Positions 22,022-39,191 of a stretch of 64,000 nucleotides of DNA are shown piece by piece. Positions within the stretch are counted from its first letter, which is position 1; the number at the start of each line of letters is the position of its first letter. The notes beneath the pieces are model-generated. The model did not search any database and was not told where the DNA came from. It worked only from the letters and a program-made list of their open reading frames with translations. This stretch comes from a virus. Where the stretch lies: UHGV virus genome UHGV-0311442; one strand, 5' to 3'. A program made the position numbers and the translations under genes.

Positions 22022-22805
22022 GGTTTACCGTGACCTGAACTTCGTAGATTTTATTGTCTTTCTGACGCCTTAAAGTCAAAAGGATTTCGAAACTACGAAC
22101 ATCAATTGCCTTGAGTACCCTCATAAACCATTTCCAGGAAAACTTCTTTTTTAACCTTAGATTGTGCTGCATGTTGTGTCGCAAATCATTTCGTTTCGAC
22201 GGTGTTTGCTCACAGTTAGCAGGATCGTTAACGAAGTTTGTGGAAAGACGGTACCACCAGTCCGCATTCATTTTCATGTTTGCGAAGATAGTCCAAGTTA
22301 ACCGAGATAACGGATGTACCATCATCTTTGCGGTCTCACCACAGTTCTGGAAATAACGGTTCAGTTGCGCAGTTGCAGACTCTTTAGGTCGTTCGTCGTT
22401 ATCTTCGAACAAATCCCGAGCGAGATCTTCACGCACGCGTGTGGTAATTTCAGATACGGTTTTTGTTTTGAAGTGTCCTCGGTAAGTGGTTACACAAATC
22501 CGCAGTGTCTCCACTCCGGTAATCACCAACCCTTCTGTAAAACCTCGCCAGGTAAGATCGACAGGTAGTGCAGGGATGTTACCTGAACTCAGCTTCGTGG
22601 AGATACGTTGTATTCGATCGTCCATCGTTGCTTTTGAACGTGTTTTAAATTCTGGAGACAGAATATGTTTGGCGACGGCGAGTTTATAATCCGAAGGCTT
22701 CCATCCGATCAATTCTTTATAATTCCAATATAGTGTTTGAAGTGGTCCGCCTGCACGTTCGTCTTCAGCGTCCACGACCACACTTACTTTTTTGCTATCC
22801 ATCAC
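21960..22805 (-). CDS. Hypothetical protein (281 aa)
   Basis: ORF with ATG start. Confidence 0.5.
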   Translation of the reverse strand: MMDSKKVSVVVDAEDERAGGPLQTLYWNYKELIGWKPSDYKLAVAKHILSPEFKTRSKATMDDRIQRISTKLSSGNIPALPVDLTWRGFTEGLVITGVETLRICVTTYRGHFKTKTVSEITTRVREDLARDLFEDNDERPKESATAQLNRYFQNCGETAKMMVHPLSRLTWTIFANMKMNADWWYRLSTNFVNDPANCEQTPSKRNDLRHNMQHNLRLKKKFSWKWFMRVLKAIDVRSFEILLTLRRQKDNKIYEVQVTVNLDEYQIGDQNENRPNNQSDK

Positions 22806-22835
22806 ATCACCTTGTTACAAGGGGTTACTGGTTTA

Positions 22836-23384
22836 TTAAATAGGACGTTCTAAAAGGTAGTGTTCAATCAACGTTTCCAACTCCCGGAATAAATGCGCAG
22901 TTTGATTTACCAGCGCTTTGTCTTCGTCGGACTCCGGTTTAAGGAACGCCGATTCATAGGGTTGAATTAGCGCGAGTAATTTACCCAGCTTATAAGCGGC
23001 AACCTCAGGACTGGACGTCCCAAAATAAGTGTCTAGCCATCGGTATTCCGCCAAGTCGTTTCGTTTATTTAAAGCGTCAGGTAATGGTAGCCATTCGATT
23101 GAACTCCTGTTAATTGCTCGTTGGTATTCATTAATGAGAAATGCCAAACGTTGATAAACGAGATCAATGTTATTAATACGCAATTCGAGGAAACCGCGAA
23201 GGCTGGGACGAAAGGGTTCTTCATTTATGTTTAAAGGCAACGTAAGCAATTGTAAGCCGGTAAAGACTCTGACATAGGGGTTGTGGGTGTTCTTATGGAA
23301 CTCCTGCTTCAGAGACTCTCTGAGGGCTTTTAAACGATTATTCTCTAACCGTTGTTTAAAACGAGTTATTATTCCTGTTAACAT
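22836..23384 (-). CDS. Hypothetical protein (182 aa)
   Basis: First gene of a minus-strand run; divergent from the plus-strand gene at 23456. Confidence 0.5.
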   Translation of the reverse strand: MLTGIITRFKQRLENNRLKALRESLKQEFHKNTHNPYVRVFTGLQLLTLPLNINEEPFRPSLRGFLELRINNIDLVYQRLAFLINEYQRAINRSSIEWLPLPDALNKRNDLAEYRWLDTYFGTSSPEVAAYKLGKLLALIQPYESAFLKPESDEDKALVNQTAHLFRELETLIEHYLLERPI

Positions 23385-23412
23385 AATTCACTCCTAAAGA
23401 ATGTCTCACGTA

Positions 23413-23423
23413 GATAATATCTG
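23413..23423. promoter_or_regulatory. Copy of recurrent AT-rich motif GATAATATCTG in a divergent intergenic region
   Basis: Same motif recurs at 32529-32539, 42021-42031, 50241-50257 and 54527-54543, always in non-coding or gene-end positions. Confidence 0.3.
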
Positions 23424-23455
23424 TCTGACTTCTTTTTGAAATTGAGGTAGTAAGA

Positions 23456-23920
23456 ATGGCTGACGAAGAAGTGAAATATCAGGCGTTTGATGGAGATGTG
23501 GACGACGAAGAATCGCTTCTCCGCCAAACGCAACAAGCCCGTGTACGGATTGTGAATCTCATCTTAGACGATCCACAAGCACACAAAGACTTGAAAACGG
23601 TAGACCGGTTAGGGTCTTTGCTTAACGACGTTGATAAACAAATCATTTCCAAACGTCGCGTCGCCGCTGCACAGAAAAACAGCGAAGCTAACCAAGATTT
23701 GGCGAATGCACTTAATAGCATCCTCATGCAACGTGGCAACATCAAAATACGTCGTCACGATGAGGAAATCGAAGAAACCCAGGGCTACCAGCCCCCCGTT
23801 CCTGTTATTCCTGATGTTGAAGTAACAGAAGGGGAGCTGGCACCAGTAGGTGAACAAATCGATGTTAAGTCCATTATGACGGCGGCGTTTGCACGTCCTG
23901 AGCAGGGCGAGCAAGACTAA
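23456..23920 (+). CDS. Hypothetical acidic protein (154 aa)
   Basis: Isolated plus-strand ORF with ATG start, D/E-rich. Confidence 0.5.
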   Translation: MADEEVKYQAFDGDVDDEESLLRQTQQARVRIVNLILDDPQAHKDLKTVDRLGSLLNDVDKQIISKRRVAAAQKNSEANQDLANALNSILMQRGNIKIRRHDEEIEETQGYQPPVPVIPDVEVTEGELAPVGEQIDVKSIMTAAFARPEQGEQD

Positions 23921-24596
23921 ATAAAGCGGCATCTCGTGGGTCGACACCGACCCACTCTGCCATAAACCGGATATGTTCCTTAAACGGGTTAACCCCGTCT
24001 TGTTTGATTTGTTCAACCAACACTCCGGTCAGTTCTGGTGTGAGCATGGCAGGGTGTGTGATGGTAAAGCTCGGAATCGGTTTTTTCAAGTGTGTGGCGT
24101 TAAGCTTAATCCACTCGAACCAATCGTACATTATCCAGCAATCCCACGCCAATGACAATCTCCCCGGTGTGAGATCTTCTAACGACCAAGACACTAATTC
24201 AACTTGTACGTTATTGTAGTACATCCGAAACAGATTCAAAAAGGCTTGAAGTTCTTCGCCCGTTAAATCCGTATAAGGCCACGTATTGATGGTCAGAGTG
24301 GGTTTTTCAATTGGCGAATGCATTTCGATTTCAAGCAACATACACTCGAATTCGTTTTTCATTGTTGCCAATAATTCAGTAGGCTGCGCATTAATCAACG
24401 CGCGCTTATCCCGCTTCCGCCACTCTTCATCCCATTTTTCAAATCCAAGTACGCCAGCCCAAGCTTCTGTATAGCGACGACGATAAACGTCGTAGTCTAG
24501 CAATGTTAAGCTTTCAGGCTTAACGGCTTTTACCCAACCTAAACGCGTATCAAATAACGTATCAATATCGATTAAGAAACGCCGAGATAATCTCAT
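23874..24596 (-). CDS. Hypothetical protein (240 aa)
   Basis: ORF in the minus-strand block. Confidence 0.5.
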   Translation of the reverse strand: MRLSRRFLIDIDTLFDTRLGWVKAVKPESLTLLDYDVYRRRYTEAWAGVLGFEKWDEEWRKRDKRALINAQPTELLATMKNEFECMLLEIEMHSPIEKPTLTINTWPYTDLTGEELQAFLNLFRMYYNNVQVELVSWSLEDLTPGRLSLAWDCWIMYDWFEWIKLNATHLKKPIPSFTITHPAMLTPELTGVLVEQIKQDGVNPFKEHIRFMAEWVGVDPRDAALFSLARPAQDVQTPPS

Positions 24597-25261
24597 GACG
24601 GATGGCCTATGTTGTTACCGATATGCATCGCTTTTAGGTACGCCGACCACGTACGCGTTGCTTTAGAACTCGTTCGCTCCGCCCCAGGCAAATCAATACG
24701 CCCTTTACCGGTTTGGCGCAACGATTGATAGAAAGCACGTTGTAGTGCGTCGTTACCACCACGCGCCCACAAGAACTCTTTCAGTGTCCAGTCGTGACCA
24801 TCGGAGTACATGATGTATGCCTCTGGGAAGGACACCCCGGATGCTTTAGAAGGTCCGACGACTTGACCGGAGAGTTTATCGCGAACTTTGTCGTTTTTCG
24901 CAACCGCCATTTTCTTTTCTTGCATCTGTGTCTGACGACGGACAGGCAAGCGTAAGACTAAGTGAGGGTAACGAGTACGGTGATAGACACCCGTTTTTGG
25001 TTCTGTTAGCCAGAGTCGTTGTTCCAGGTTTACCCCGAGAATTTTGCACACCTCGATATTGCGCAGGTGGTCAATTTCGACTTTACTTCCCACCGGGTTG
25101 TAAATAGGTAAACCGTTACGAAGTCGGTTAAACTGTTCGTCGGTCATTCGTGCGAAGGCTTTCTTCGCGGCTTCGGCATTAATGCCAGAAGGGTCTACCA
25201 ACTTTAAGATTTGTAAGGCGTAGGCTTCCGCCTTTTTACGCCGTGCTGGTTCGAGTTTCAT
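24593..25261 (-). CDS. Hypothetical protein (222 aa)
   Basis: ORF; its stop overlaps the downstream gene start. Confidence 0.5.
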   Translation of the reverse strand: MKLEPARRKKAEAYALQILKLVDPSGINAEAAKKAFARMTDEQFNRLRNGLPIYNPVGSKVEIDHLRNIEVCKILGVNLEQRLWLTEPKTGVYHRTRYPHLVLRLPVRRQTQMQEKKMAVAKNDKVRDKLSGQVVGPSKASGVSFPEAYIMYSDGHDWTLKEFLWARGGNDALQRAFYQSLRQTGKGRIDLPGAERTSSKATRTWSAYLKAMHIGNNIGHPS

Positions 25262-25535
25262 TGTCTACCGCCTTACGTAAATTGGATAACGTTTCTGCTT
25301 CAAGCAGGTCAATCCAGTAGCTAATAGCTTCCGTGTTTTCAGGAAGTTCGGAACGTACTGGCGCATACCCGTAACGCACTAATAGATTCGAGTAATACTC
25401 AGCGACCTTTAAACAAAAAGATTCCAGATCGGGAAACGGAAGAGTGAAGGCTTCACGAAATTCGGCCGCTGTTTCTAAATTAACACTTGCCAATCCTTCA
25501 CTTAAGCGTTCCACAATCTCCGTTTGATAACGCAT
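25236..25535 (-). CDS. Hypothetical protein (99 aa)
   Basis: ORF with ATG start and GGAG upstream. Confidence 0.45.
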   Translation of the reverse strand: MRYQTEIVERLSEGLASVNLETAAEFREAFTLPFPDLESFCLKVAEYYSNLLVRYGYAPVRSELPENTEAISYWIDLLEAETLSNLRKAVDNETRTSTA

Positions 25536-25546
25536 GATGACTCCTT

Positions 25547-25593
25547 AGGTCGGGTAGGGTAATCCCTACCCGAGCCTATTTATTTCTTTTTCG
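25547..25593. terminator. GC-rich hairpin with plus-strand T-run; orientation atypical for the surrounding minus-strand genes
   Basis: Stem CGGGTAGGG/CCCTACCCG, loop TAAT, followed on the plus strand by GCCTATTTATTTCTTTTT; overlaps the 3-prime end of the 498-aa gene. Confidence 0.4.
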
Positions 25594-27076
25594 TCAGGAA
25601 CTTCGGTTCTAGCCCATCGACAGCCATACCCAGAATAGTACGTGCAGTCAATGTACGTTTACCACCTTTGGTTTCCTGGTCTTTAAACATCCAGTATTCT
25701 ACCGTGTTGTCCAGAATTTCATTCCAGTCCCACTTCTCGTCAATCATTTTGTAAATCTCACCCATGCTGAGATGATACTTCATTTCAAGACGATGGTAGT
25801 TGTTTTGCATATAAGCAATTGCCGCCGTGATCTCTAAAGCGCGACGTAAGCGTGCGTTATCAGAAATCATATCACGGATCGTCGTGCGTTGGAATTTCAC
25901 ACCAGGTAGAATGTCCAGTTCTTTGATGGAACCGCCACTACCGCTTGATGTGAAACCAAAGTCTGACTTCTTCAGCGTGTCACTTAAATAGTGCCACAGG
26001 CTCAGGTGATATAACAGACCCATTTCCTGAGAGAAGATCATCTGAAATTTCACACCGGTGTGACCACCCTTCGCACGATACTGGGTAAAGGTGATAATCT
26101 TCAAGTCGTTTACCGACGCATTCATCGCTTTAGAACGTGACGTCGGATAAAGTTCTTCGTTAACACCCGTCTGCGCGTTATAGCTCTGGTCTTTTTTCAG
26201 CTCCCCTGATTTCGTCGCGACGATAAAAGAGTTTGTTAAAAAGCTAAGCTGACGGCGAGGAATACCTGCGAATTTTAAATCGTCGTTGGCATCGTCAAGA
26301 ATTTTCGCATTTGCTTTTTGTGCCTGACGACCACCTGCCATCGCTTTCCCAGAGTCATCGGCCATCTGTGCCACGAAGCCCATGTAAAAACCACCGCGTG
26401 CAAACGCAGACGGCCAGCGGCTCATCATATTCGATTTTTGCAACGCGTCGTGGGCGTTCAGGATGTTCTGATCAGAATCCCCAATATCCGTTTTTGCGTG
26501 CTTGTCTTCCAGCGAACTGGAATGCCACTCTGACAGGGAGTCGATAGAATAAAGCCAGGGGTCCAGGATTTCTTTTAACTTACGACGAACCGGATCGGGG
26601 AACGGTGTTACGCGGGTTTTACCAGACATATACTGTTTGAAGCGTTTTTCAACTTCATCACGAATATAATCACTGTAATACTGTTCCCCAGGCATTACGT
26701 CAGAACCGACCAGGTTATAACGACCTTCGTGGATAAGCTCCAGTACGGATGTTCCGTCGTCGATACCGTTGGCGTTCATGGCAGAGATGTACCCAGTTTC
26801 TAAACGATCGAGGGCAGCGGACACTTCTGTATCGTACTTAGAACCCCACTCTGCTTTATAACGTTGCAGGATTTGGAAGATACAGAAATCTAACAAGGTG
26901 GATTTAAAGGTGTTACCGCGACCTGCGAAACCCATGATGTGGGCAAAACCACCGTTAAGGTAGTACAAACCATCTTCACCTTTTTCGTAGTTACCTAAGG
27001 CATGATCCATGATGGTGTAAACGTTAAAACGTGGACGAATTACTTCACCGATAACTTGCTTAGTTGGGCCTGCCAT
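25580..27076 (-). CDS. Hypothetical protein (498 aa)
   Basis: Long ORF with ATG start; AGRGNTFKST resembles a P-loop but is not a canonical Walker A. Confidence 0.6.
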   Translation of the reverse strand: MAGPTKQVIGEVIRPRFNVYTIMDHALGNYEKGEDGLYYLNGGFAHIMGFAGRGNTFKSTLLDFCIFQILQRYKAEWGSKYDTEVSAALDRLETGYISAMNANGIDDGTSVLELIHEGRYNLVGSDVMPGEQYYSDYIRDEVEKRFKQYMSGKTRVTPFPDPVRRKLKEILDPWLYSIDSLSEWHSSSLEDKHAKTDIGDSDQNILNAHDALQKSNMMSRWPSAFARGGFYMGFVAQMADDSGKAMAGGRQAQKANAKILDDANDDLKFAGIPRRQLSFLTNSFIVATKSGELKKDQSYNAQTGVNEELYPTSRSKAMNASVNDLKIITFTQYRAKGGHTGVKFQMIFSQEMGLLYHLSLWHYLSDTLKKSDFGFTSSGSGGSIKELDILPGVKFQRTTIRDMISDNARLRRALEITAAIAYMQNNYHRLEMKYHLSMGEIYKMIDEKWDWNEILDNTVEYWMFKDQETKGGKRTLTARTILGMAVDGLEPKFLTKKK

Positions 27077-27091
27077 TTAGCGCTCCGATAA

Positions 27092-27391
27092 TTAACGATT
27101 CTTGGTCGGAAGAAGGAGACGGCGGTTGTGCCAGAATTCAAAGTAGGTTTCTACCCACTCAGTAACTTCTTCCGCATTTTCAGGATAAGGGTTTTCAATA
27201 GACTCGAAACGGCGTTTGTTACGCTCGTCAATTTCCAGTTCCATAACACGTTTACCGCTCGGGCACGACGTTACGCTCAAGACTTTTCCAACTTGAATAG
27301 GCTTACCGTTCTGACCTTTTTTAACTGGGGACAGATAAATTTCCGGTTCTAAACGCGGTGTGGTGTTTCGAGTCAGTAATTTGATTTTCAT
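27092..27391 (-). CDS. Hypothetical protein (99 aa)
   Basis: ORF in the minus-strand block. Confidence 0.45.
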   Translation of the reverse strand: MKIKLLTRNTTPRLEPEIYLSPVKKGQNGKPIQVGKVLSVTSCPSGKRVMELEIDERNKRRFESIENPYPENAEEVTEWVETYFEFWHNRRLLLPTKNR

Positions 27392-27489
27392 CGAGCTTTA
27401 CCTTTATGGAAGAGTCTCGGTCATAAGGTTTGGGTGAACTGTAAAAAGACTTTACTATGTAACCCTGACTTATAATCCGAGGTTTTAGA

Positions 27490-28245
27490 ATGAATGTAAA
27501 TCCACTTGCAGCGTTATCTAGCTTCGCCGCTAAAGCGTCTGCAATCTTACCGAAAGGGTTTAGCGGCCCTCAACAAGAGATTGCATTAACCACTTATGAC
27601 GAGATGTCGGACGTTTCCAAGTGGATGCAACAAGAAAAATTCCTACACTTTGCGGGAATGTTGGTTATCGTTCCACCAGGGTTTAATACCTACGTGATGG
27701 ATCATTTGAACCGCTTAGAATCTGTATGGAGTTCACTACAAAACATCTATACGGGTATTCTGCTACCGGTCGATAAACAACTTTCGGCCCTTACACATGA
27801 TGTGGGGGTACTGTCATTACCGATTGGTTTCCGTTACAAAAACGTTAATTTGCCGTTACGTAATGTTAACCCGAAAGACCTGGTTAACTTATTAGCGAAA
27901 TCGTACACTAATAACGTTATTGACCAGCGACCAATTGAGAAGACGTACCACAGCGCGTCTGAGATTGACGTTGCGTTCAATCGTGCTAAAGCCCTGAACG
28001 TTGAAATCACAAAACGTCTACGGACGAACATCGACAAGTCAATCGAGTCCATTCGCACTACGTCAGAAATCTTGTCCGAACAAAACATTCATCCGAATGT
28101 AGCAAAAGAACTGACGATGATGTTAGATTTTGCATCCGATTGGGTGGAGCTGTTTGGTTTGTTCATGAAACAGGTTAACGAGTTAATCGAATGTCTGAAC
28201 GTTACTGCCGAACGCTTAAAAGCGCTTAAGGCAAACAAAAAATAA
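27490..28245 (+). CDS. Hypothetical protein (251 aa)
   Basis: Isolated plus-strand ORF with ATG start, followed by a bidirectional terminator. Confidence 0.55.
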   Translation: MNVNPLAALSSFAAKASAILPKGFSGPQQEIALTTYDEMSDVSKWMQQEKFLHFAGMLVIVPPGFNTYVMDHLNRLESVWSSLQNIYTGILLPVDKQLSALTHDVGVLSLPIGFRYKNVNLPLRNVNPKDLVNLLAKSYTNNVIDQRPIEKTYHSASEIDVAFNRAKALNVEITKRLRTNIDKSIESIRTTSEILSEQNIHPNVAKELTMMLDFASDWVELFGLFMKQVNELIECLNVTAERLKALKANKK

Positions 28246-28298
28246 AAAAGTAAAGTTACCCCTAGACCACACGGTCTAGGGGTAAACTATTTATTTCC
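28236..28298. terminator. Bidirectional rho-independent terminator
   Basis: Stem CCCCTAGACC/GGTCTAGGGG, loop ACAC, A-run upstream and TAAACTATTTATTT downstream. Confidence 0.7.
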
Positions 28299-29190
28299 CA
28301 CGATAAAATCCAGAAATGTAACTCGGCGCTATCCATCGCCATTCGCGCCAGCGCATTTCTGACATTTTACCACACCATACACGCTTCCAATGCGCACGAC
28401 GGATATGTGCGGCGCAATAAATCGCCAAACAAACCTCGTGTCCTTCCTTGCGTTGCTGCTCTATATCTTCCCATTGTACCGGACTTACGTCTAAAACGAC
28501 TGCTTCACTACGTGGGCGAATTTCTGTATCAGGAACATAACGAATGGACCTTCCGCGAAATTCTTTTTTCTCGCGCTCAGTTCGTTTAATTCGTGATGAA
28601 AGATATAACCCGATGTAGACGGCGTCGAGTAGTCGCTGATTCTCCTTAACCGAAGTAAGGAGCGGCTTTAACTCCACGAAATCATCATTACTTTTATCGA
28701 TCGTGTAAATCTCAAACTCCATGTATACCGACTCGTCATGTTCTTCGCATGACATCACAAAGAGAACTTCTTCACCTTCGTAAAGACGTCTTCCGATAAA
28801 TAACGTGATCGGACATTCGTCGAGATTTACGGTAACCGAGAAAGTAAATGAAGGGATGGTTTCTATCCAGAAGTACGGGATATTTTTTAGTCTCTCAGTT
28901 TTTGCTAAGAGTGCCATCAGTTCTTCATCCGAGATGATTTCAACAGCAGCGTATTGCCATCCTAGTCCCAGGGACTGCTTAATCAGTCTGGGAATCTGTT
29001 CGGTAACGCCATACTCACGATAGGTCGGATCTTTAACTGGCATAAACGTTACAGGTATTTGACGTTTATGCTCGTTAATGAACCGAATAAAGCGGCACTG
29101 ATCCAATCCGTGAATTGTTTGGTGTGCCTTTTCTATCTGTTCGCTCATGCGTCTTAGCGCTTTCCCGTAAAGTCTATTATTCGTTGTCAT
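28291..29190 (-). CDS. Hypothetical protein, paralog A of a tandem pair sharing a C-terminal AHIRRAHW motif
   Basis: Start refined to ATG at 29188-29190 (AGGAGC upstream), about 300 aa. C-terminus CAAHIRRAHWKRVWCG...WREWRWIAPSYISGFY matches the neighbour's AAHIRRAHWRRYWVGP...LYWIPPTFVRGYV. Confidence 0.6.
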   Translation of the reverse strand: MTTNNRLYGKALRRMSEQIEKAHQTIHGLDQCRFIRFINEHKRQIPVTFMPVKDPTYREYGVTEQIPRLIKQSLGLGWQYAAVEIISDEELMALLAKTERLKNIPYFWIETIPSFTFSVTVNLDECPITLFIGRRLYEGEEVLFVMSCEEHDESVYMEFEIYTIDKSNDDFVELKPLLTSVKENQRLLDAVYIGLYLSSRIKRTEREKKEFRGRSIRYVPDTEIRPRSEAVVLDVSPVQWEDIEQQRKEGHEVCLAIYCAAHIRRAHWKRVWCGKMSEMRWREWRWIAPSYISGFYRGK

Positions 29191-29215
29191 TTTAATGCTC
29201 CTAAACACTTTTAGC

Positions 29216-30142
29216 TTAATTGTGGGGTACGTAGCCACGGACAAATGTCGGTGGAATCCAGTAAAGTTTTCTCTTCCTTTCACCATTTCTAGGACCGACC
29301 CAATATCTGCGCCAGTGCGCGCGACGAATATGTGCGGCCTTGGCGTGTTTGATACCTTCCATGGTTTTCAAGTCAGTGTTAAACCCTTTTAGATAATTCA
29401 CTTGTCCTGGCGTGATATCTATCTTAACATCGCGTTCACGAGGTTTAACGTCGTAACTAATACTACCGTTCTTTTTGATTTCCTTGAACTTAATATCATT
29501 AAAAGACTCCCTGTAATTAGGCGGGATTAGCGTACAGAGAAATATCAACGATATGGCGGTTTTGGCCAGTGATAGCCATAACGTCTTCTCTTGTTCGGTC
29601 TGTACGCCAGTTGTATAATCGATTTCAACAAGCCCGTTTCCAACACTACATATCTCTAACGAGCAGGTGGCGATCGTGGTAACGCCTTCTGTTAACCCGT
29701 AATCAGTATTTGTAGCAATTATAATAAACCTTCTATTCCCATTTTTTCGATAACCGAGAAAGAAAGTCTCATCTTCTTTACCTACATCGATTGCTACAGT
29801 CCAAGTAGGTATAAAGTCTAACCACTCTTCAGGGAATTTACTGGGCATCTCAGTCTCGAAAACAAGTTCTCTAAGTGCTCGATTGGATATTAAGGAAGCG
29901 CCCCCGTATAGCCATCCAATTGCCAATGTTTGTGCGTGAAGGGAACGGGGATCTTTGAGACCTAACTCAGCGTCGTATGGTATAAAGGCATTAGTTAAAT
30001 GCTTACGATTCTTTTTTATCCATTTCGAGACGGGATTTTCTTTTGTTTGATTTTCTTCCATGACATTTTCTAGATGCTGACTCCCCATTTGTCTAAGGCA
30101 GTCTTTAATACCTTTTACTTTTTTACTTTTGTACAAATACAT
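29216..30142 (-). CDS. Hypothetical protein, paralog B of the same pair
   Basis: 308 aa, ATG with AGGAGA upstream; shares an internal LGWQY/IGWLY segment and the C-terminal motif with paralog A. Confidence 0.6.
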   Translation of the reverse strand: MYLYKSKKVKGIKDCLRQMGSQHLENVMEENQTKENPVSKWIKKNRKHLTNAFIPYDAELGLKDPRSLHAQTLAIGWLYGGASLISNRALRELVFETEMPSKFPEEWLDFIPTWTVAIDVGKEDETFFLGYRKNGNRRFIIIATNTDYGLTEGVTTIATCSLEICSVGNGLVEIDYTTGVQTEQEKTLWLSLAKTAISLIFLCTLIPPNYRESFNDIKFKEIKKNGSISYDVKPRERDVKIDITPGQVNYLKGFNTDLKTMEGIKHAKAAHIRRAHWRRYWVGPRNGERKRKLYWIPPTFVRGYVPHN

Positions 30143-30159
30143 GGTATATTCTCCTAAAA

Positions 30160-30195
30160 TGGTTAAAAATAAAGTTACCCTAGCCGAAGCTAGGG
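30160..30195 (-). terminator. Rho-independent terminator (minus strand)
   Basis: Stem CCCTAGC/GCTAGGG, loop CGAA; A-rich run on the plus strand upstream. Confidence 0.55.
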
Positions 30196-30201
30196 TGTCT
30201 A

Positions 30202-30690
30202 TTAGTCGATTTTGACGTAATCAGGATAATTAGCTTTTAGCCACTCCCACAGGTGCAGCGCGAGCATACCCTGGTCGTAACTAATGATTTCCACAATACC
30301 GTGTGAGTGTGCTTCATTACTCCAAATTTGACTATAGAAACGACGCCACTCACCTTCTGCATAAGGTAGCACAGTTCCTGGGATAAAACCGTTGTGGTAT
30401 TCGTTAATTAGCGATTGTAAAGTTTCAATGCGGATTCCGTATAATCGGCTATCGATGAACGATTTTGTAATCCCACCAAAGAAACCAACAAAGAAATTAT
30501 CCAGATTCATCATAAGTCTGGATCTGTAATTACCTACAATGTAGTCGGCGGCTGCCGCAGCCATCCACGGAGTATCGACGACTCTTGGCGTCAGTTTATC
30601 GTGGATTGTTGTACGTACACGGACGGTGTGGTTAAGAAATTCATGAATCATGTCGGAGTTTTTCAAAGCGATTATCTGATTTAAGTTCAT
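30202..30690 (-). CDS. Hypothetical protein (162 aa)
   Basis: ORF with ATG start. Confidence 0.5.
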   Translation of the reverse strand: MNLNQIIALKNSDMIHEFLNHTVRVRTTIHDKLTPRVVDTPWMAAAAADYIVGNYRSRLMMNLDNFFVGFFGGITKSFIDSRLYGIRIETLQSLINEYHNGFIPGTVLPYAEGEWRRFYSQIWSNEAHSHGIVEIISYDQGMLALHLWEWLKANYPDYVKID

Positions 30691-30691
30691 T

Positions 30692-31216
30692 TTATTGTCC
30701 TAATATTGGGGTGAGTCTGTCTGCGGTGTTTAACAACGCTTTTGTAATTTCGTAGTCGGTTTCTTTCAGGATGGCGATACAAACGGTGATGTAAACTTCG
30801 ATTGCTAACATGATTTCTTGTTCGGACAGCAACGGTTCGGTACCGCCAATCCCGTAACGCTGCGCCGCATACTCAATTTCAAGTTTCAAACGTTTCCATA
30901 ATGCCTTGTCGTCGGTTAAACGTGCACAGGCACGATCAAAACGTCTTTTATAAACGCCGATCTTGTGGTCAATTTCACGACGCAGTTGGTCGGCTGCTAC
31001 GCCATCATCAAGAGTGATGGTGACATTGTCAACTAAACAGTAATGCACTGTGTGTCGTAAGTTGTGTAATGTGGCGACAGTAACGACCCGCTCCTGATGG
31101 TCGCTAAAGCCGTGAGCACCACAGAGCTTGCGTGCAACCGCGCCAGAGATTTTCTCCTCTAGCGCTATCGGTGTGGCAATGGTTGTTTTCTTACGAAGCT
31201 GAATTAAAATATCCAC
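30692..31216 (-). CDS. Hypothetical protein (174 aa)
   Basis: ORF separated by 1 nt from the upstream gene. Confidence 0.5.
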   Translation of the reverse strand: MDILIQLRKKTTIATPIALEEKISGAVARKLCGAHGFSDHQERVVTVATLHNLRHTVHYCLVDNVTITLDDGVAADQLRREIDHKIGVYKRRFDRACARLTDDKALWKRLKLEIEYAAQRYGIGGTEPLLSEQEIMLAIEVYITVCIAILKETDYEITKALLNTADRLTPILGQ

Positions 31217-31218
31217 GA

Positions 31219-31791
31219 TTATACTCCTTTAGGTTGACCGTATTTTGATGACAGGTAGATGAGCTCAGCATGGCAGACTTTCTCAACTAACCCGAGTGTC
31301 TCAAGGAAAATATCCCGGATACGGGACATTGTTTCGTTGGTAAGAATATCGCTCCAACACGTTGTGTCTATTATATCCGTCGTTGAAGATTGTCGCTGCA
31401 ATATGGCGACATATACCTCGTCGAGGGTATCTGGAGCATTATTCTGTAAGTAATGCGCGGCATGTAGAAAGGCTTTCTCAAGAATCAGGTGAATATCCGT
31501 ATCAGGATCAGTTACCCGCACTAAATGTGGGTATGTCATGGCCGAATGGATTTTTCGTTCTAACTGTTCAATGAGATTATTCACCATCGCTTCTGAATCC
31601 AGGATAGTAATTTCGGCCCCACTGTGTTCTTCAGAAATCTTGTTCTCATGTACTGCTATCGCGTCGTGCAGTTCAAACGCAACGCGGCTACGCATCTCAC
31701 TTAACAGTTTGTTTAATTTACCCCGTGACTCGCTGAGTGAGAAATCGATAAGTATTTTCATGTTAATAGCCCTGATAAATGATGTCGTCAC
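31219..31791 (-). CDS. Hypothetical protein (about 180-190 aa)
   Basis: ORF; start may be the internal Met (MKILIDFS). Confidence 0.5.
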   Translation of the reverse strand: MTTSFIRAINMKILIDFSLSESRGKLNKLLSEMRSRVAFELHDAIAVHENKISEEHSGAEITILDSEAMVNNLIEQLERKIHSAMTYPHLVRVTDPDTDIHLILEKAFLHAAHYLQNNAPDTLDEVYVAILQRQSSTTDIIDTTCWSDILTNETMSRIRDIFLETLGLVEKVCHAELIYLSSKYGQPKGV

Positions 31792-32500
31792 GGTCTTTAC
31801 GTAACTGGCAGTATGTTACGTCAGCACCGTTAGGGATTTGTACGCCAGCGTCTTCAAGATAAATAACACCAGTCTGATTACAGAAATAAAAAGACCACAA
31901 GTACGGATTGCCTTGACAACTGTTTTCACGATGATCGAAGGGCCAATAACCGCGATACAATTCGTCGTAATCGCCGCGCTCGATACCAAAAGCAATCATT
32001 TCTTTTTCCCACAATCTGCTTTCGGCGTCGTAAATCGAAAACCAGAAACCGACGAGGTTCTTTGTCCGTTTAACGTTCATTAAGTCGTTATAAATGGGGA
32101 AGAGTGCTTTATTGAAACTTTCTAACATCTCTGGAGAGAGTAGAAAGTTCACGTAGTATTCTAGCCATTGATAAACGGCTTCCCAGACATCTTCAGAAGA
32201 GAAATGCTCGAATACGGCGTCATCACAATCGTAGTTATCGAAGACCCCTGAGAGATCTATTATGACGTCGCGAAGGTCAAAGTTTCGGTTGGTATTGACA
32301 GCCTCAATAACTTCGGAGATAAGACGAGTAAAGACGTTTGTGCAGGCAGTCTGTGCGGTATAAAAGAATTCTCCTTGTGCGGTTGACCACTTCGGGTCCT
32401 TCAAATGTTCATTGAAGTATTGTGGCCAAATTTTATAAAAGATTCCCTCGAACAACGAGGGATTGATACGTTGTAATTGAGGGACATAAACTTTTAGCAT
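31763..32500 (-). CDS. Hypothetical protein (245 aa)
   Basis: ORF with ATG start. Confidence 0.5.
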   Translation of the reverse strand: MLKVYVPQLQRINPSLFEGIFYKIWPQYFNEHLKDPKWSTAQGEFFYTAQTACTNVFTRLISEVIEAVNTNRNFDLRDVIIDLSGVFDNYDCDDAVFEHFSSEDVWEAVYQWLEYYVNFLLSPEMLESFNKALFPIYNDLMNVKRTKNLVGFWFSIYDAESRLWEKEMIAFGIERGDYDELYRGYWPFDHRENSCQGNPYLWSFYFCNQTGVIYLEDAGVQIPNGADVTYCQLRKDRDDIIYQGY

Positions 32501-32536
32501 TTTAATAACTCCAATGGTGTTACACCTGGATAATAT

Positions 32537-33205
32537 CTATCTAAGAATATTTTTAGCGAAAAAAGGATCGACTGTAAACTCCTTCACCTGTGAGTCATAA
32601 CCCGAATGTATTTGATCGCTACTGAGCAAATACTGGTCTAAATCGTGCGGAAGAATCCAAGAATCGCCTTGCTTAAAAATACCATAATCTGCTGTTCCTG
32701 CGGAAAAAATGATTTCCTCTGGAAACGAATAGATGTGGCGTAAGGCAAGATCGGATGGCTTTAACACGATTAATCGAACGGGATGTTGACTGACTGCCTC
32801 TTTAATAAACTGTTCACGATTAAACCAAATTATTTTTTCGGGGTAAGTTTCGAATTCAGCCCATGTCCGCGTGATAACTAATTTGGAAATCTTTCTCAAT
32901 TCTTCAGAATGCTCTGCGTAGCCAATACACTCCTTGCGTACTTCATGATTTTCTACCGATGCTGTGAATTTTTGGAATAGGTGTTGTTGGAAAAAGCCGT
33001 TCTCCGGGATATCACAACCCGCGTTGTATAGTGCAATGATCTCCCACAACAACGAAAGAGAAAACACAAATGCTAACTTTTCCACCACTTCCCAATCTTC
33101 GGAGTAAGGGGCTTTAAAGCCCCAATACTGCCGTGCGTTATACATAAAGTGAGTTTGTAAAAACCGGGGGGCTTTTGACAAGACCTCACTATAAACGATC
33201 AGCAT
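32537..33205 (-). CDS. Hypothetical protein (222 aa)
   Basis: ORF overlapping the upstream RNase H fusion gene by a few nt. Confidence 0.5.
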   Translation of the reverse strand: MLIVYSEVLSKAPRFLQTHFMYNARQYWGFKAPYSEDWEVVEKLAFVFSLSLLWEIIALYNAGCDIPENGFFQQHLFQKFTASVENHEVRKECIGYAEHSEELRKISKLVITRTWAEFETYPEKIIWFNREQFIKEAVSQHPVRLIVLKPSDLALRHIYSFPEEIIFSAGTADYGIFKQGDSWILPHDLDQYLLSSDQIHSGYDSQVKEFTVDPFFAKNILR

Positions 33206-34719
33206 TCAAGCTCCTTATCCGTCAGTATTCGTTTGTTTGAATAATAGCCGCACCACAACCCATGATATTTTTCCCCGATATAAACCAACGCATATTCGAT
33301 ATACTGCCGTTCTGGACGCCGTACCGCCACGTAGAAACGCCCTTCTGGTTCTTTCATACGGTTGATTTCCGTACGCGTCGGTATGTCGATACCACGAGTA
33401 AGGATAGTTTTAACCTTGTTTTTGCTACCAGGGATATGGATAGTTACGTCAAAACCTTTATCTACATTACGATAAAAGTCTTTCTTCGGCTTACCCTTCT
33501 CATCGTAAAGCAGGTCAGTAATGTCGTTCATTACGACTGAGTTTTTCCCCTCCATGGCATCGCGTAACCAACCTGCAAGCTCATCACGAATCGTAATGCA
33601 GCGATAAGACAATAACGCGGGACGAAGAATTCGTGTAATCGAAAGATCTTCAAACATCCATAGGTTTTTGTCTTCGCTAAAATGCATCCGATCGACAGGA
33701 ATACCGTTAGCTGCGGCTTCTGCGAACTTCTTACGTTTTACGAATAAGTTAAAAACAACGGCGATGGGATCAAACTGACGTAAACGGGGCACCCCTTCCC
33801 ATGCTTTCGCAGAGTGGGTATTTACCAACTCGTATACGTTGTTCCATGGTTCTTTGGTAAACATTACGCAGAATTGTGCGTCTGGAATGTACTTACCAAC
33901 GAAGACGATATCGTCCTTCTGTTTTGCATGGTTCCCACCGAACATGTAATAAAGTTTATTACCGTTAACTGTAACCGTGGGATGCGGTTCGTTCACCATC
34001 GGGTAACAGAACTTCGTAACACAGATATCGGGAAAAGCAGACAAATTGACACCTTCACCAACAACTTCTGGTTGCTGTTCTTCCTCAGGCATCTCGTCTT
34101 TTGACCAATACGGTGTATAGTCTAGCCCCTCACCTCGAGCCGAGATACTTGAACCTTTCCGTGCTAACTCGTCGGCACGCTCGTTTCCATAACGCCCTGA
34201 GTGACCTTTAATTTTAAGGACACGAACGCCTTTCCCTTCTTTCTTTAACCGCTGTTTAACCTCCCACATCCGTTGGATTAATTCCAAATTCGCAATGGGT
34301 GTGCCGTCCGCACGACGCCAGCCGCGTGCTGCCCAACCATCAATCCAATCGTTATACGTGTTGACAACGTAAGATGCGTCGATATAGATAACATAGTTTT
34401 TGGCAACGAAAGGGGCGTGTTCGAAGACGGTCAGGAAAGCCACGAGTTCTGCAACGTCGGAGTGTGACATTTTTGGTACAGGCACAACACCGTCAATAAA
34501 CTCCACGGTTTCTGGTAAAGGTGGAAGTTTTTCATCCTTGTTTATCTGGCGGTATCCTGACGTCGTAATCCCCTCGGGAATAGAGGGATGGCGGTAAACC
34601 CGACCATCCTCAATCGTTTCACGATTAAATAAGTATCCATGAATCCCCGCTCCTGTACCGAGCGGGGAGGTCAAATGGCTACCATCCGTGTAAATTACTG
34701 CAACATCAACGTTCTTCAT
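33199..34719 (-). CDS. Ribonuclease HI domain fused to a 300-aa C-terminal domain of unknown function
   Basis: 506 aa. N-terminal about 200 aa carry RNase HI motifs in order: AVIYTDGS, SDVAELVAFLTVFE, IYIDASYV, WIDGWAARGWRRADGTP, IKGHSGRYGNERADELA. Remaining 300 aa unassigned. Confidence 0.75.
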   Translation of the reverse strand: MKNVDVAVIYTDGSHLTSPLGTGAGIHGYLFNRETIEDGRVYRHPSIPEGITTSGYRQINKDEKLPPLPETVEFIDGVVPVPKMSHSDVAELVAFLTVFEHAPFVAKNYVIYIDASYVVNTYNDWIDGWAARGWRRADGTPIANLELIQRMWEVKQRLKKEGKGVRVLKIKGHSGRYGNERADELARKGSSISARGEGLDYTPYWSKDEMPEEEQQPEVVGEGVNLSAFPDICVTKFCYPMVNEPHPTVTVNGNKLYYMFGGNHAKQKDDIVFVGKYIPDAQFCVMFTKEPWNNVYELVNTHSAKAWEGVPRLRQFDPIAVVFNLFVKRKKFAEAAANGIPVDRMHFSEDKNLWMFEDLSITRILRPALLSYRCITIRDELAGWLRDAMEGKNSVVMNDITDLLYDEKGKPKKDFYRNVDKGFDVTIHIPGSKNKVKTILTRGIDIPTRTEINRMKEPEGRFYVAVRRPERQYIEYALVYIGEKYHGLWCGYYSNKRILTDKELEC

Positions 34720-34721
34720 TC

Positions 34722-35456
34722 TTAATCCCTGGTTAATTGATCACGAATCTGCGGCGCAACATACTCGCCAGTTTTCAGTTCTTCGTGACAGGCTTTGGCG
34801 CGTTCAAACCCGTATTGGCGGGTGACCAAAGCGAGGTGATAAATACGTGCCGTAGTGTAGGCTTCTTTTGCTGCATCCCACATTGCGTGGTGCTCAAAAG
34901 CGGGCTTACCGCGCGTCCAATAAACTTGCTCTACCGTTAAGTCGGGTTCGAAACCAAACGCAAAAGCTAAACGCTCTGCGGTACGATCGCTATCTAACGC
35001 GCTAAATTTACGGAACTTCCCTGGCGGGATATCGCATTGTGCGAATGCGTTCATGAAAACCGGCGCATCGAAGTCGGGACCGCGCATGGTAATAACAAAC
35101 TCATGCTTTGCGGTGATCTCTCCGAGCCATTTTTGCATCGCCCACAGCGCGTCTGGCAATGCTGTTGTTCCACCCCAGGCTTCTTCATACGCTTCACGAG
35201 ATGGTGCGTATTCGGGTTCACCTTTACCTTCCCACCAACCAACGGTTTGTGGGTCTTCGTGGAAAATGGCTTTTGCTTTAGGATCGTTAGGATCAATACG
35301 GATGTATGAAGAACCGACCATTTTCAAGGTAGGGACGTCAAAAGCCACTAAACCTGCACTCAACAGATAAGCATCAGGACGTAACGATTTGGTTTCTGCA
35401 TCAGCACCAATAACCAGTGTCGGTGTGTACGGGGTGACAATTTTTGGGTAGGTCAT
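34722..35456 (-). CDS. DEDDh 3-prime to 5-prime exonuclease, oligoribonuclease-like
   Basis: 244 aa; Exo I LVIGADAETKSL (DxE), Exo II PDFDAPVF, Exo III HHAMWDAAKEAY (H-x4-D), resembling Orn/RNase T family. Confidence 0.6.
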   Translation of the reverse strand: MTYPKIVTPYTPTLVIGADAETKSLRPDAYLLSAGLVAFDVPTLKMVGSSYIRIDPNDPKAKAIFHEDPQTVGWWEGKGEPEYAPSREAYEEAWGGTTALPDALWAMQKWLGEITAKHEFVITMRGPDFDAPVFMNAFAQCDIPPGKFRKFSALDSDRTAERLAFAFGFEPDLTVEQVYWTRGKPAFEHHAMWDAAKEAYTTARIYHLALVTRQYGFERAKACHEELKTGEYVAPQIRDQLTRD

Positions 35457-35495
35457 GTTGAATTCTCCTGTTAGTCTACATTAAAATAGTCGTAA

Positions 35496-35542
35496 ACGTT
35501 AAAAAGAAAGACCCTCCTGTACCACGAAAGGGTACAGGAGGG
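35496..35542 (-). terminator. Rho-independent terminator (minus strand)
   Basis: Stem CCCTCCTGTACC/GGTACAGGAGGG, loop ACGAAA; A-rich run on the plus strand upstream. Confidence 0.6.
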
Positions 35543-35546
35543 AGTG

Positions 35547-36005
35547 TCAGTACAAACACGATGTCAAGTATTGGTTATACGAATCGAGCAGTGTCTGACG
35601 GTCGGAACGGTAATTCCACAACAAATTATTGAGTTTACGCGATAAATCACGGCTAATCTCTTGGGGCGTTAAAGAACTTTCATCAAGAGATAAGCGTTCA
35701 GGTACAACATGTAACTTCGGTAACTCATAACGTTCACAAAGTGGAGCCAGCATTGGTGGGCTCCAGCCACGTTTAACGGCTTGTTGGTTTAAATTTCGGG
35801 TGTAGACATAAACGTAGTAAGCATAGGTGTTGACATCCGCAACATACTCACGCATTGCATTATTGTCAATTTTCCAATTCACCATTATTGGCGGTGTAGG
35901 AGGAAGTTCCAGTGGCCTATAAGCTGGACGTTTAACTTCGTCGCCGTAGCTATTACTCACCAACCCCACGAACACCATCATGATGAATAACAGCATTTTC
36001 ATCAA
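35547..36005 (-). CDS. Secreted Pro-rich protein with N-terminal signal peptide (152 aa)
   Basis: N-terminus MMKMLLFIMMVFVGLVSNSYG then PAYRPLELPPTPP; no lipobox Cys. Confidence 0.5.
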   Translation of the reverse strand: MMKMLLFIMMVFVGLVSNSYGDEVKRPAYRPLELPPTPPIMVNWKIDNNAMREYVADVNTYAYYVYVYTRNLNQQAVKRGWSPPMLAPLCERYELPKLHVVPERLSLDESSLTPQEISRDLSRKLNNLLWNYRSDRQTLLDSYNQYLTSCLY

Positions 36006-36509
36006 TCACTCCTTAGAAGACGTTAGCGTCTTTATGATCTCCTGTCGAAAACTGTTCGCATTTAAATTGCCAACAGGTCTCGCCGAAGCCTCTTTACGTT
36101 GTTCTGGTGTTGAAGCTGGATTAACAGGAGTTTCTGGTTTTGTCGAAGACAGATCCTTCGCCGTACCGCTCGCTTTCGATGAATTAAACGTGCTTTCATA
36201 TGGCGGTTTCTGGCCGAGGCAAACGAAGAGCCTGTCGTATAACTTCCCATTATCTTCTTTTAGTTTATCTCGATCTTGTTTCATCTCTTGGTAAGACTGC
36301 GACATATAAGTGTCATGAGACTGCACTGCAACGAGCGCGTGAAACTGTTGTACATAGGCGTAGGAGACGAAGCCAGAATACGACAACAAGATCGTGATGA
36401 TTAAAGTCATTATCTTGCTTGCTCTTGATACGTTTTCTCCTTCTCCTGGTTTAAATGCTTCCATTAACATCTGAAGGAAGAACGGAAGCACTTTAAAAAA
36501 TGAACCCAT
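36006..36509 (-). CDS. Membrane protein with one internal TM helix and coiled-coil region (167 aa)
   Basis: Hydrophobic segment IMTLIITILLSYSGFVSYAYV then charged heptad-like segment; abuts the downstream secreted protein gene. Confidence 0.5.
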   Translation of the reverse strand: MGSFFKVLPFFLQMLMEAFKPGEGENVSRASKIMTLIITILLSYSGFVSYAYVQQFHALVAVQSHDTYMSQSYQEMKQDRDKLKEDNGKLYDRLFVCLGQKPPYESTFNSSKASGTAKDLSSTKPETPVNPASTPEQRKEASARPVGNLNANSFRQEIIKTLTSSKE

Positions 36510-36534
36510 TGCTCACCTCGGAGTATTTTTAATT

Positions 36535-37908
36535 ATGTTAGACTTACAAGGTTTTATTCAGATACCGGCACTGTTTGACAATCAGGACGGCGTCACCGCT
36601 CCGGTGGGCGAGCTGTCGGATTTGACACTCTCGTACGCGAAGAGTAAACAGACGTTTACTAAAACCAATTTGCAAGTTCAATTGGTGACTTTTACGTCTA
36701 AACGAGAAAAACAGACGGTTGTTGTGCCAGCCGAGTTTTCTGATCATATTCTAACCGTTTCTCAATGGATTTACCAGCAAGCCATCTTGGGGAATCTGAG
36801 AAATGACGAACTCGAATTCCAGCGCCTGTTATTAGGCCAATTCCAATCAACCATTTCTGGTGTTCAGTCTGGTGCGATGATACAGACGAACAGTAACTGG
36901 TTCCCACGTTGGGTGAGCTGGAAATATGAAGTAACGGCAGATCAAGTACAAGATGACACTGATGTAGATAATCAGATCATTGTTTGGTTCTCGGATGAAG
37001 ACTTCGATCAAGATTACACAGGGTTCGAAATCGAAGTACAGATGCCGATTTCACCAATCGACACATTTTTGTCGACCAAGTCAGTCGTTGAAAAGGCGAT
37101 GGAAGGGTTTAACCTTACCGAACACCATAAGAAAATCAATGAGTTAATGGCAGGGTTTCCTTACACCGCTATCCAAACCAACTACTATACTTGGCACGAT
37201 CAAGAAAACTACGAGTCCACCCTAGTTGTCCCAATGTCGGTTATTATTTACGGACGTGCGGGGAAAAACCCAACGAAAATAAAGCAGGCGTTGCGAGAAC
37301 ATATTCTCGCTAATTCCAGCTTTACTGTCCCTGTCGGGGTAAAAGTATTTCCCGAGATTTTCACTACCACGAAATTTACAATTGTTCCCGGATGGAAAAT
37401 TCGTGGAATACCCAATGAGGAAGATGTGGCGGCGCTTTATTCCCCCATCCTTCCATATGATTTCTGGGTCAAAGCTATCAGTCGGTTTGGAGAATGGGCA
37501 GACCTGACGGTAGCAGAAAGAAATACTAAAACGATCAGTAAACCTACAACAGACGTAACTGACTTACCAACAGTTTATAAATCATTAAACTGTGTTGTAA
37601 TCAGTGGGCCGGAAAACGATACACGGAAAGCGACCTTACACGAAACTATCCCGGATTATGCGTTAATTGCGACGACTAACCCTGATATTGCGCGTATGTC
37701 GAAAACAACGACCGAATGGTTGGCGTTATTCTTCCAGGCACTTATTGCTGCGGAAGAATACCACCCGTATCAAACCAGCTTAGATGTTGTAAAACTGGTC
37801 GATGAGGCCGACCCTGATAACTACTTCTGGGTGTTTGAATACGACAACGTAGAATATCGTATCCTGTCTCGGAAAGCGAAATGGTACACCGAGTTAGACG
37901 AGGAGTAA
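36535..37908 (+). CDS. Hypothetical protein (457 aa), plus-strand island
   Basis: ATG at 36535, 25 bp from the divergent minus-strand gene start. Confidence 0.6.
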   Translation: MLDLQGFIQIPALFDNQDGVTAPVGELSDLTLSYAKSKQTFTKTNLQVQLVTFTSKREKQTVVVPAEFSDHILTVSQWIYQQAILGNLRNDELEFQRLLLGQFQSTISGVQSGAMIQTNSNWFPRWVSWKYEVTADQVQDDTDVDNQIIVWFSDEDFDQDYTGFEIEVQMPISPIDTFLSTKSVVEKAMEGFNLTEHHKKINELMAGFPYTAIQTNYYTWHDQENYESTLVVPMSVIIYGRAGKNPTKIKQALREHILANSSFTVPVGVKVFPEIFTTTKFTIVPGWKIRGIPNEEDVAALYSPILPYDFWVKAISRFGEWADLTVAERNTKTISKPTTDVTDLPTVYKSLNCVVISGPENDTRKATLHETIPDYALIATTNPDIARMSKTTTEWLALFFQALIAAEEYHPYQTSLDVVKLVDEADPDNYFWVFEYDNVEYRILSRKAKWYTELDEE

Positions 37909-37911
37909 TGA

Positions 37912-38535
37912 ATGGCTACGCGTTTACCACTCCAGGTACCGGTCAACACCACGGGACTGTTCAAAGTAAAAACACCATTTACTTTGGCCGAGACGGTCAT
38001 TTATACGGTAGAAGCGTCACGTACCTTCCCAGATTTAGTACGTCAGAATATTGACGTTTATAACTCGTATTACCAGCCAGTAGGGCTAGGACGTGAAGAA
38101 TATTTAGCAGATGCGAATGTTAGTGCGTCGATTCTGACATTTAAATCTCGGGACGGTCAAGTTGTATATATACCTGACACCTACCTGGAATCATACCCAG
38201 GTTTATCCGGGATCACGTATCAACGAAATGTGTTAGTGGTAGATTTGGCACTGGTACCGGATTACGTGAAAGTGTCGTCTATAACAAAAGACGTTTCAGA
38301 TATTCTCACGCATACACTAGGGATTGAGCCGAAAGTTGAAATTACAACACTCGAGTATGAGGGGAAGGTAACGGAGGAACAACACTTGCAGATGGAAGCG
38401 GCACGAAAAAATAAAATTCGTGAATCTATTCCATTAGGTGAGAAAGTTGCTGCGTTGACAGAAGAGAACAAAAAATTAAAAGAGTTAAACAACCAAATGT
38501 TAGAGATTCTTAAAGCTAACGGGTTAGTTAATTAA
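37912..38535 (+). CDS. Hypothetical protein with C-terminal coiled coil (207 aa)
   Basis: ORF 3 nt after the previous gene; C-terminus EENKKLKELNNQMLEILK. Confidence 0.55.
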   Translation: MATRLPLQVPVNTTGLFKVKTPFTLAETVIYTVEASRTFPDLVRQNIDVYNSYYQPVGLGREEYLADANVSASILTFKSRDGQVVYIPDTYLESYPGLSGITYQRNVLVVDLALVPDYVKVSSITKDVSDILTHTLGIEPKVEITTLEYEGKVTEEQHLQMEAARKNKIRESIPLGEKVAALTEENKKLKELNNQMLEILKANGLVN

Positions 38536-38580
38536 AAAAGATTACCCTACTCCTTCGGGAGTAGGGTAGCTTTTATTTTA
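38534..38580. terminator. Bidirectional rho-independent terminator
   Basis: Stem CCCTACTCC/GGAGTAGGG, loop TTCG, A-run upstream and T-run downstream. Confidence 0.75.
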
Positions 38581-39129: not shown

Positions 39130-39145
39130 TTTAATACTCCTAAGG

Positions 39146-39184: not shown

Positions 39185-39191
39185 ATTTAAA

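Follow-up and report, generated by a model that had tools for sequence, protein, structure and literature searches.

Organization of the locus

The window analysed here is a 64,000-nucleotide stretch of viral DNA (UHGV virus genome UHGV-0311442). Our subject is a pair of adjacent genes on its minus strand, gene B upstream and gene A downstream, whose products we assign with little doubt to the AcrVA2/FinQ protein family. An original prediction, made from the sequence alone, had proposed a tandem paralog pair at this location, and two co-oriented open reading frames (ORFs) are indeed found there in the ORF list of the window, although the start of gene A had to be corrected. As listed, the gene A ORF begins at 29286, encodes 331 amino acids (aa) and overlaps gene B by 71 nucleotides (nt). 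However, this ORF contains an ATG at 29190 with an AGGAG sequence (29198-29202) 8 nt upstream of it, and the same residue is where the orthologues, which are 294-299 aa long, begin. Gene A therefore most likely starts at this ATG, giving a 299-aa protein and a 25-nt gap after gene B (Table 1). Because terminator-like hairpins separate the pair from both neighbours, the layout suggests that B and A are a self-contained two-gene unit.

Table 1. Coordinates of the gene pair, its sequence elements and other features of the window
Feature	Position	Strand	Basis or remark
Gene B, AcrVA2-like protein, upstream paralog, 308 aa	29216-30142	minus	AGGAG 8 nt before ATG
Gene A, AcrVA2-like protein, downstream paralog, 299 aa	28291-29190	minus	ATG 29190
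B C-terminal motif AAHIRRAHWRRYWVGPRNGERKRKLYWIPPTFV; H271, R273, H276 = AcrVA2 H286, R288, H291	29240-29338	minus	translation, residue map from hidden Markov model (HMM)
A C-terminal motif AAHIRRAHWKRVWCGKMSEMRWREWRWIAPSYISG; H262, R264, H267	28309-28413	minus	translation, HMM residue map
B IGWLY segment; W77 = AcrVA2 W79	29906-29920	minus	translation, residue map
A LGWQY segment; W78 = AcrVA2 W79	28951-28965	minus	translation, residue map
B hypervariable central beta-sheet patch, ~residues 125-200	29543-29770	minus	orthologue identity, dN/dS
A hypervariable central patch, ~residues 141-190	28621-28770	minus	allele identity
Terminator-like hairpin, GC-rich 8-bp stem and T-rich tail	30177-30196	minus	between upstream gene and B
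Perfect hairpin, 13-bp stem and 4-nt loop, TTACCCCTAGACC ACAC GGTCTAGGGGTAA	28256-28285	terminator-like on both strands	between A and convergent gene 27490-28245
RNA polymerase beta-subunit fragment, 539 aa	2699-4318	minus	phrog_2986
Tail protein, 2388 aa, C-terminal transglycosylase region	4348-11514	plus	
Virion structural protein, 1440 aa	57332-61654	plus	

Similarity between the two proteins

Proteins A and B are 25% identical over 285 aligned residues (BLASTP, E value 1e-20). Because the match spans 285 residues, their homology is whole-length and extends beyond the C-terminus, whereas the original prediction had stressed the retention of a C-terminal segment. That segment had been called near-identical, which is correct for a nine-residue core (AAHIRRAHW, 9/9 identical) and incorrect beyond it: a global alignment, the check suggested with the prediction, gave 18/40 identical residues in the last 40 columns (45%), compared with 60 of the 239 aligned positions outside them (25%). 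An internal (L/I)GW(Q/L)Y segment is present as described, reading IGWLY in B and LGWQY in A.

When all six frames of the window were scanned, the pattern H.R..HW was restricted to the A and B ORFs, and the same scan revealed no third AcrVA2-like family member in the window. A low-complexity or chance motif is ruled out by this uniqueness together with five residues that are invariant in the family alignment (see below).

Assignment to the AcrVA2/FinQ family

The original prediction did not recognise the protein family. In PHROGs, A and B both belong to phrog_6160, which is indeed labelled as function unknown, but the family has already been described as AcrVA2/FinQ (PF26125). In a large protein collection, precomputed PF26125 assignments are found on every close homologue of both genes, including A orthologues at 98% and 63% identity, and contig look-ups give the name of PF26125 as "AcrVA2-like". 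Despite these precomputed assignments, a scan of A, B and their homologues against a local copy of Pfam-A returned nothing relevant, PF26125 included. An NCBIfam scan of A and B gave no match, and nothing was found in a literature search on PF26125.

Using a profile of the pair and its close homologues, the best sequence match in the PDB was AcrVA2 (7ci1); this match was weak (E 0.048) and covered the C-terminal motif at the same relative position. Word-indexed homologue searches gave few proteins, and the view of the family presented here comes from an exhaustive profile search of representatives, which yielded ~600 clusters at 50% identity. Nearly all of the family matches listed measure 300-380 aa and carry the motif C-terminally. 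A profile from a 68-sequence alignment that included A and B matched 7ci1 with an E value of 2e-43 over residues 9-319 of 323. To guard against circularity, an HMM of 317 columns was rebuilt from 56 members outside the jumbo-phage clade. This leave-clade-out HMM matched AcrVA2 (E 1.7e-43), B (E 1.6e-31, HMM columns 52-311 of 317) and A (E 1.8e-20, HMM columns 11-311 of 317). Both proteins thus match the family profile significantly along most of their length, and we regard their membership of the AcrVA2/FinQ family as nearly certain.

Predicted fold and critical residues

A structure model was generated by running AlphaFold2 (AF2) on the 68-sequence alignment. A and B share a predicted architecture in three parts: helices at the N-terminus, where the GW segment lies, then a central beta sheet accompanied by a long helix, and at the C-terminus four short strands, which in the model of B lie at residues 271-301. 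The model thereby reproduces the helical, beta-sheet and four-stranded C-terminal domains of the three-domain fold described for AcrVA2 (PMC10846135). Foldseek searches of BFVD found matches among uncharacterised jumbo-phage and siphovirus proteins. One such structural homologue of B, A0A223LH45 from Erwinia phage vB_EamM_RisingSun, has the UniProt name 'Putative mycothiosynthase' and is probably an AcrVA2-like protein that has been misannotated.

The residues required by AcrVA2 have been probed by mutagenesis (Marino et al., bioRxiv 10.1101/2022.11.29.518452). AcrVA2 lowers Cas12a mRNA and protein more than 10-fold whatever the promoter or codon sequence; it reads the N-terminal Cas12a polypeptide (LSKT motif) and needs the target to be translated. 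The substitutions H286A, R288A and H291A abolished downregulation while co-precipitation of Cas12a was kept, W79A lost downregulation and weakened the interaction, and D89A caused only a moderate loss of function. Mutating D195 together with two other residues disrupts the binding of a Cas12a peptide.

By HMM mapping, the histidine/arginine triad corresponds to H271/R273/H276 in B and H262/R264/H267 in A. The three B residues, together with G283 and W295, are invariant in the 68-sequence alignment, in which mean column identity is 18%; the C-terminal H-x-R-x-x-H is found in both proteins and is invariant in all ten related tandem loci. The equivalent of W79 is the tryptophan of the GW(Q/L)Y segment (W77 in B, W78 in A), and in gp235 of Erwinia phage Asesino a tyrosine aligns to this position. 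AcrVA2 D89 maps to D88 in A and N87 in B, with an aspartate in the B allele of a related locus (L002). The equivalents of D195 are V180 in B and L177 in A, both of which lie inside the hypervariable patches. Both segments flagged in the original prediction therefore match known functional hot spots of the AcrVA2 family. Its interpretation of the conserved segment as the functional core was sound in this respect; its emphasis on that segment alone was not, as the rest of the protein is also homologous, folded and under purifying selection.

The same data bear on the suggestion that the C-terminal His/Arg/Trp peptide binds nucleic acid or nucleotides on its own, the remainder being a dispensable divergent scaffold. 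The segment is basic, aromatic-rich and the most conserved part of the protein, and the finding that mutating the motif abolishes mRNA downregulation by AcrVA2 is compatible with an RNA or ribosome contact, which by analogy is possible for A and B. Nevertheless, the conservation and folding of the remaining sequence do not fit a dispensable scaffold, AcrVA2 recognises its target as a polypeptide rather than a nucleic acid (Marino et al.), and structure searches matched no known nucleic-acid-binding fold. We consider this explanation improbable. An RNase motif of the HEPN type (R-x4-6-H) was ruled out, because the motif here is H-x-R-x-x-H and is placed in beta strands, not helices.

A fixed position in jumbo phages and a clade-specific duplication

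The gene content of the window is that of a jumbo phage, with a split RNA polymerase beta subunit, an SbcC-like protein, thymidylate synthase, RNase H, an exonuclease, UvsX and large virion proteins. A megablast search of the locus against 50,697 phage records gave no match, so that at the DNA level no cultured phage is a close relative. The window is nonetheless collinear with Asesino (genus Erskinevirus, family Chimalliviridae) and with the SPN3US-like phage EC001; the phage is a relative of Asesino and of Salmonella phage SPN3US within the Chimalliviridae. Asesino and EC001 each have one AcrVA2-like gene at the place of the pair, followed by a 251-aa gene on the opposite strand, a 99-aa gene and UvsX.

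Single copies are the rule elsewhere. Three tblastn searches matched 25, 10 and 92 phage records, all with one copy per genome. Most of these are jumbo phages of Erwinia, Salmonella, Escherichia, Dickeya, Serratia and Klebsiella, the others being temperate phages of Moraxella, Pasteurella, Lactobacillus and Leptospira; among the matches listed, all that are annotated are called 'hypothetical protein'. Pseudomonas phiKZ-type phages gave no match at tblastn E<=1e-3, and the gene is therefore not core to the whole of the Chimalliviridae. A scan of IMG/VR yielded 65 loci. The tandem pair was found in ten loci (L002, L003, L005, L006 and L008-L013), all from the window's own clade, while every other locus with a family match, among the 65 and eight others, had one copy. 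In a neighbour-joining tree A, B and the single-copy jumbo-phage genes group apart from other family members; the tree carries no support values, so the duplication is left undated.

One of the tandem loci, L008, comes from NZ_CP134650.1 (positions 27517-40434), a circular record of 222 kb. It was submitted as 'plasmid unnamed1' of Enterobacter ludwigii strain 51A:C, whose source was the cloaca of a gull. The record is non-mobilizable, and L008 is gene-for-gene collinear with positions 22500-36500 of the window (exoribonuclease, RNase H, tandem AcrVA2-like pair, UvsX and virion proteins). This 'plasmid' is probably a mislabelled jumbo phage genome that was carried by, or co-assembled with, the isolate, and its deposition with E. 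ludwigii hints at the host of the phage in the window.

Divergence, selection and allele exchange

Ratios of nonsynonymous to synonymous substitution (dN/dS) of 0.08-0.19 in pairwise comparisons rule out a pseudogenised duplicate; A and B are both under purifying selection and functional. Even so, the two proteins diverge far more than conserved genes nearby. Compared with metagenomic relatives, UvsX of the window is 96% identical, A 63% and B 69-93%; compared with Asesino, UvsX is 81% identical, A 25% and B 29%, with neighbouring genes at 60-86%.

Divergence is concentrated at the centre of each protein. Between B of the window and its L002 orthologue, residues ~125-200 are 20-45% identical, in contrast to 55-80% for residues 1-120 and 85-100% for residues 200-308. 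Likewise, A differs from the A2 allele mainly at residues ~141-190 (25-40% identical, against 60-80% elsewhere). In the central patch of B dN/dS rises to 0.51, compared with 0.05-0.12 in the flanks. The AF2 model predicts this patch to be a folded beta sheet, with a predicted local distance difference test (pLDDT) score of 84-96.

The variants fall into discrete classes. Gene A has two, 62% identical to each other: A1 in the window, L009 and L012, and A2 in seven loci, where it is 98-100% identical. Gene B has three (B1, B2 and B3) at 67-72% identity, B2 and B3 being 83% identical, and B classes pair differently with A classes across loci. Moreover, L002 and L005 are 95-97.5% identical in DNA while their B proteins are only 72% identical, and between the window and L005 the synonymous divergence (dS) is 0.38 for B as opposed to 1.04 for UvsX. 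Taken as a whole, these sequence comparisons indicate that alleles reassort between phage lineages.

These observations weigh on a further explanation, in which A and B have a conserved phage-internal or general host-takeover role, for instance in the timing of phage expression or the shut-off of a housekeeping protein. Such a role would suit a gene that keeps its place, flanked by the RNase H/exonuclease block on one side and UvsX on the other, in Asesino, EC001 and the window clade, and that is present in 92 phage records, mostly of Enterobacterales jumbo phages. It sits poorly with a gene that is among the fastest-evolving of its locus (25-29% identity to Asesino, against the neighbours' 60-86%), with a hypervariable patch and allele exchange, which are unusual for housekeeping, and with the lack of a tblastn match in phiKZ-type phages. 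We view this role as unlikely.

Several other small genes nearby are also variable. Just upstream of B, the minus-strand genes at 30202-30690 (162 aa) and 30692-31216 (174 aa) appear as variable cargo; PHROG and Pfam scans gave no match for either and no functional clue for the flanking small genes. The 162-aa gene is 54% identical in L002, 58% in L006 and 85% in L005, and was not detected in Asesino; the 174-aa gene is absent from L005. The 162-aa gene tracks B in L005 (85%) and L002 (54%), a pattern broken by L006 (58%, compared with 90% for B), and the exchanged block of sequence may include it. Two further minus-strand genes (31219-31791 and 32537-33205) evolve fast: their identity is 57-63% to L002 and L005, where neighbours reach 86-96%, and 24-34% to Asesino. 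With A and B, they form a rapidly diverging stretch between the conserved RNase H and UvsX.

Proposed mode of action

We propose, with a probability of roughly 0.6, that A and B act in the manner of AcrVA2. By analogy, each protein would use its variable N-terminal and central domains to bind a short segment of one particular target protein, probably while the nascent peptide leaves the ribosome. The conserved C-terminal H-x-R-x-x-H domain would then trigger loss of the mRNA under translation, preventing the target from being made. With their different central domains, A and B would provide two target specificities, and the hypervariable patch and allele exchange would fit an arms race with the targets. 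These are probably defence proteins in the host cytoplasm or products of competing mobile elements.

Several points weigh against this proposal. The mechanism of AcrVA2 is known chiefly from a preprint (Marino et al.), and even there the mRNA-decay step is unexplained (bioRxiv 10.1101/2022.11.29.518452; review PMC13131331). Foldseek against the PDB missed 7ci1, and hhalign of the shallow close-homologue profile with AcrVA2 aligned only the C-terminal 39 columns (probability 91.8%); the full-length question was settled with the leave-clade-out HMM, and full-length homology to AcrVA2 leans on intermediate sequences and the fold match. B of the window has asparagine in place of D89. In the variable patch dN/dS is raised yet below 1, and relaxed constraint could account for it. 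Finally, single-copy synteny across many enterobacterial jumbo phages is more housekeeping-like than expected of an accessory anti-defence gene.

Regarding the target, Cas12a is unlikely, because the relatives' hosts are Enterobacterales and because phages that form a nucleus are already sheltered from CRISPR nucleases that target DNA. That A and B are genuine anti-CRISPRs against Cas12a would fit their shared family, fold and critical C-terminal residues. However, the known hosts of cultured relatives are Erwinia, Salmonella, E. coli and Dickeya, and a near relative was deposited with an Enterobacter ludwigii isolate. These bacteria carry CRISPR systems of type I and are not known to have any of type V-A. 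The presumed target-binding regions are only ~13-20% identical to AcrVA2, and AcrVA2 homologues, those of megaphages included, are usually found where Cas12a is absent (Marino et al.). In addition, nucleus-forming phages are described as shielded from such nucleases (PMC7162821; PMC11077065). An anti-Cas12a function is accordingly the least credible of the explanations considered, and the type V-A anti-CRISPR label should not be transferred to A and B.

Alternatively, A and/or B could apply the same chemistry to another class of target, acting on competing mobile elements such as conjugative plasmids, prophages or co-infecting phages. The family member FinQ, whose distribution on IncI1 plasmids has been reported (PMC5696584), sets a precedent by inhibiting F-plasmid transfer and lowering tra mRNA (Marino et al.), and allele exchange with a hypervariable patch would fit inter-element conflict equally well. 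On the other hand, A and B are not close to plasmid FinQ (tblastn of B against 72,556 plasmid records gave one phage-like record only), and a strictly lytic jumbo phage gains little by blocking conjugation. This alternative seems to us doubtful, about as much so as a host-takeover role.

Building on the proposed AcrVA2-like action, we tentatively put forward a broader hypothesis, which is less probable than the action itself: the AcrVA2-like proteins of enterobacterial nucleus-forming jumbo phages might be a vertically inherited module at a fixed position that silences chosen cytoplasmic proteins co-translationally, with the central patch as an exchangeable specificity cassette and the C-terminal domain as a common effector. 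If this is true, the tandem pair is a natural two-specificity system, and the alleles A1/A2 and B1/B2/B3 are ready-made specificity variants for studying how nascent peptides are read and which non-CRISPR defences are disarmed.

Relation to known systems

AcrVA2 is so far the sole bacterial case in which recognition of a polypeptide causes loss of the mRNA encoding it. The locus described here shows that the AcrVA2/FinQ family is fixed in a large group of lytic Enterobacterales jumbo phages, where it is annotated as 'hypothetical protein', and it offers adjacent paralogs that share an effector motif and differ in their presumed recognition domain. Natural allele swaps between near-identical genomes (L002 and L005) provide a starting point for mapping specificity and targets in tractable hosts.

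Known counterparts include the orthologues of cultured jumbo phages (PHROG 6160), namely Asesino gp235, EC001 MGA_211 and those of other SPN3US-like phages, Erwinia ChrisDB, the pEa_SNUABM phages and Dickeya AD1. They share the family and the genomic position, all carry the same uninformative annotation, and they differ in being present at one copy per genome instead of two and in having 21-31% identity to A or B.

AcrVA2 itself is an anti-CRISPR of a Moraxella bovoculi prophage (PDB 7ci1/7ci2, Pfam PF26125), where it adjoins acrVA1, whereas A and B are found in tandem in a lytic jumbo phage, where their syntenic position is conserved. Identity to AcrVA2 in structural alignment is ~13%, and A and B do not keep D129 and D195, the residues that contact the peptide; moreover, the likely hosts of this phage are not known to carry Cas12a, so the target probably differs. 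FinQ, an AcrVA2 homologue in which the HxR motif is conserved and the C-terminal domain is predicted to be similar (Marino et al.), resembles the proposed action in that the mRNA of a specific target operon (F tra) is lowered; Cas12a is thus not the only target of the family. N-terminal regions diverge among family members (Marino et al., bioRxiv 10.1101/2022.11.29.518452). FinQ differs in being plasmid-borne (IncI1, F-like), and it is likened to A and B here by its published description.

The AcrVA2/FinQ family, PF26125 and the presence of family members on "megaphages" are already known (Marino et al., bioRxiv 10.1101/2022.11.29.518452; PMC7162821), and the locus does not represent a new kind of system. 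What it adds to these precedents is modest: a fixed synteny in enterobacterial chimalliviruses, a clade-specific tandem duplication, a hypervariable patch predicted to be folded, and the exchange of alleles.

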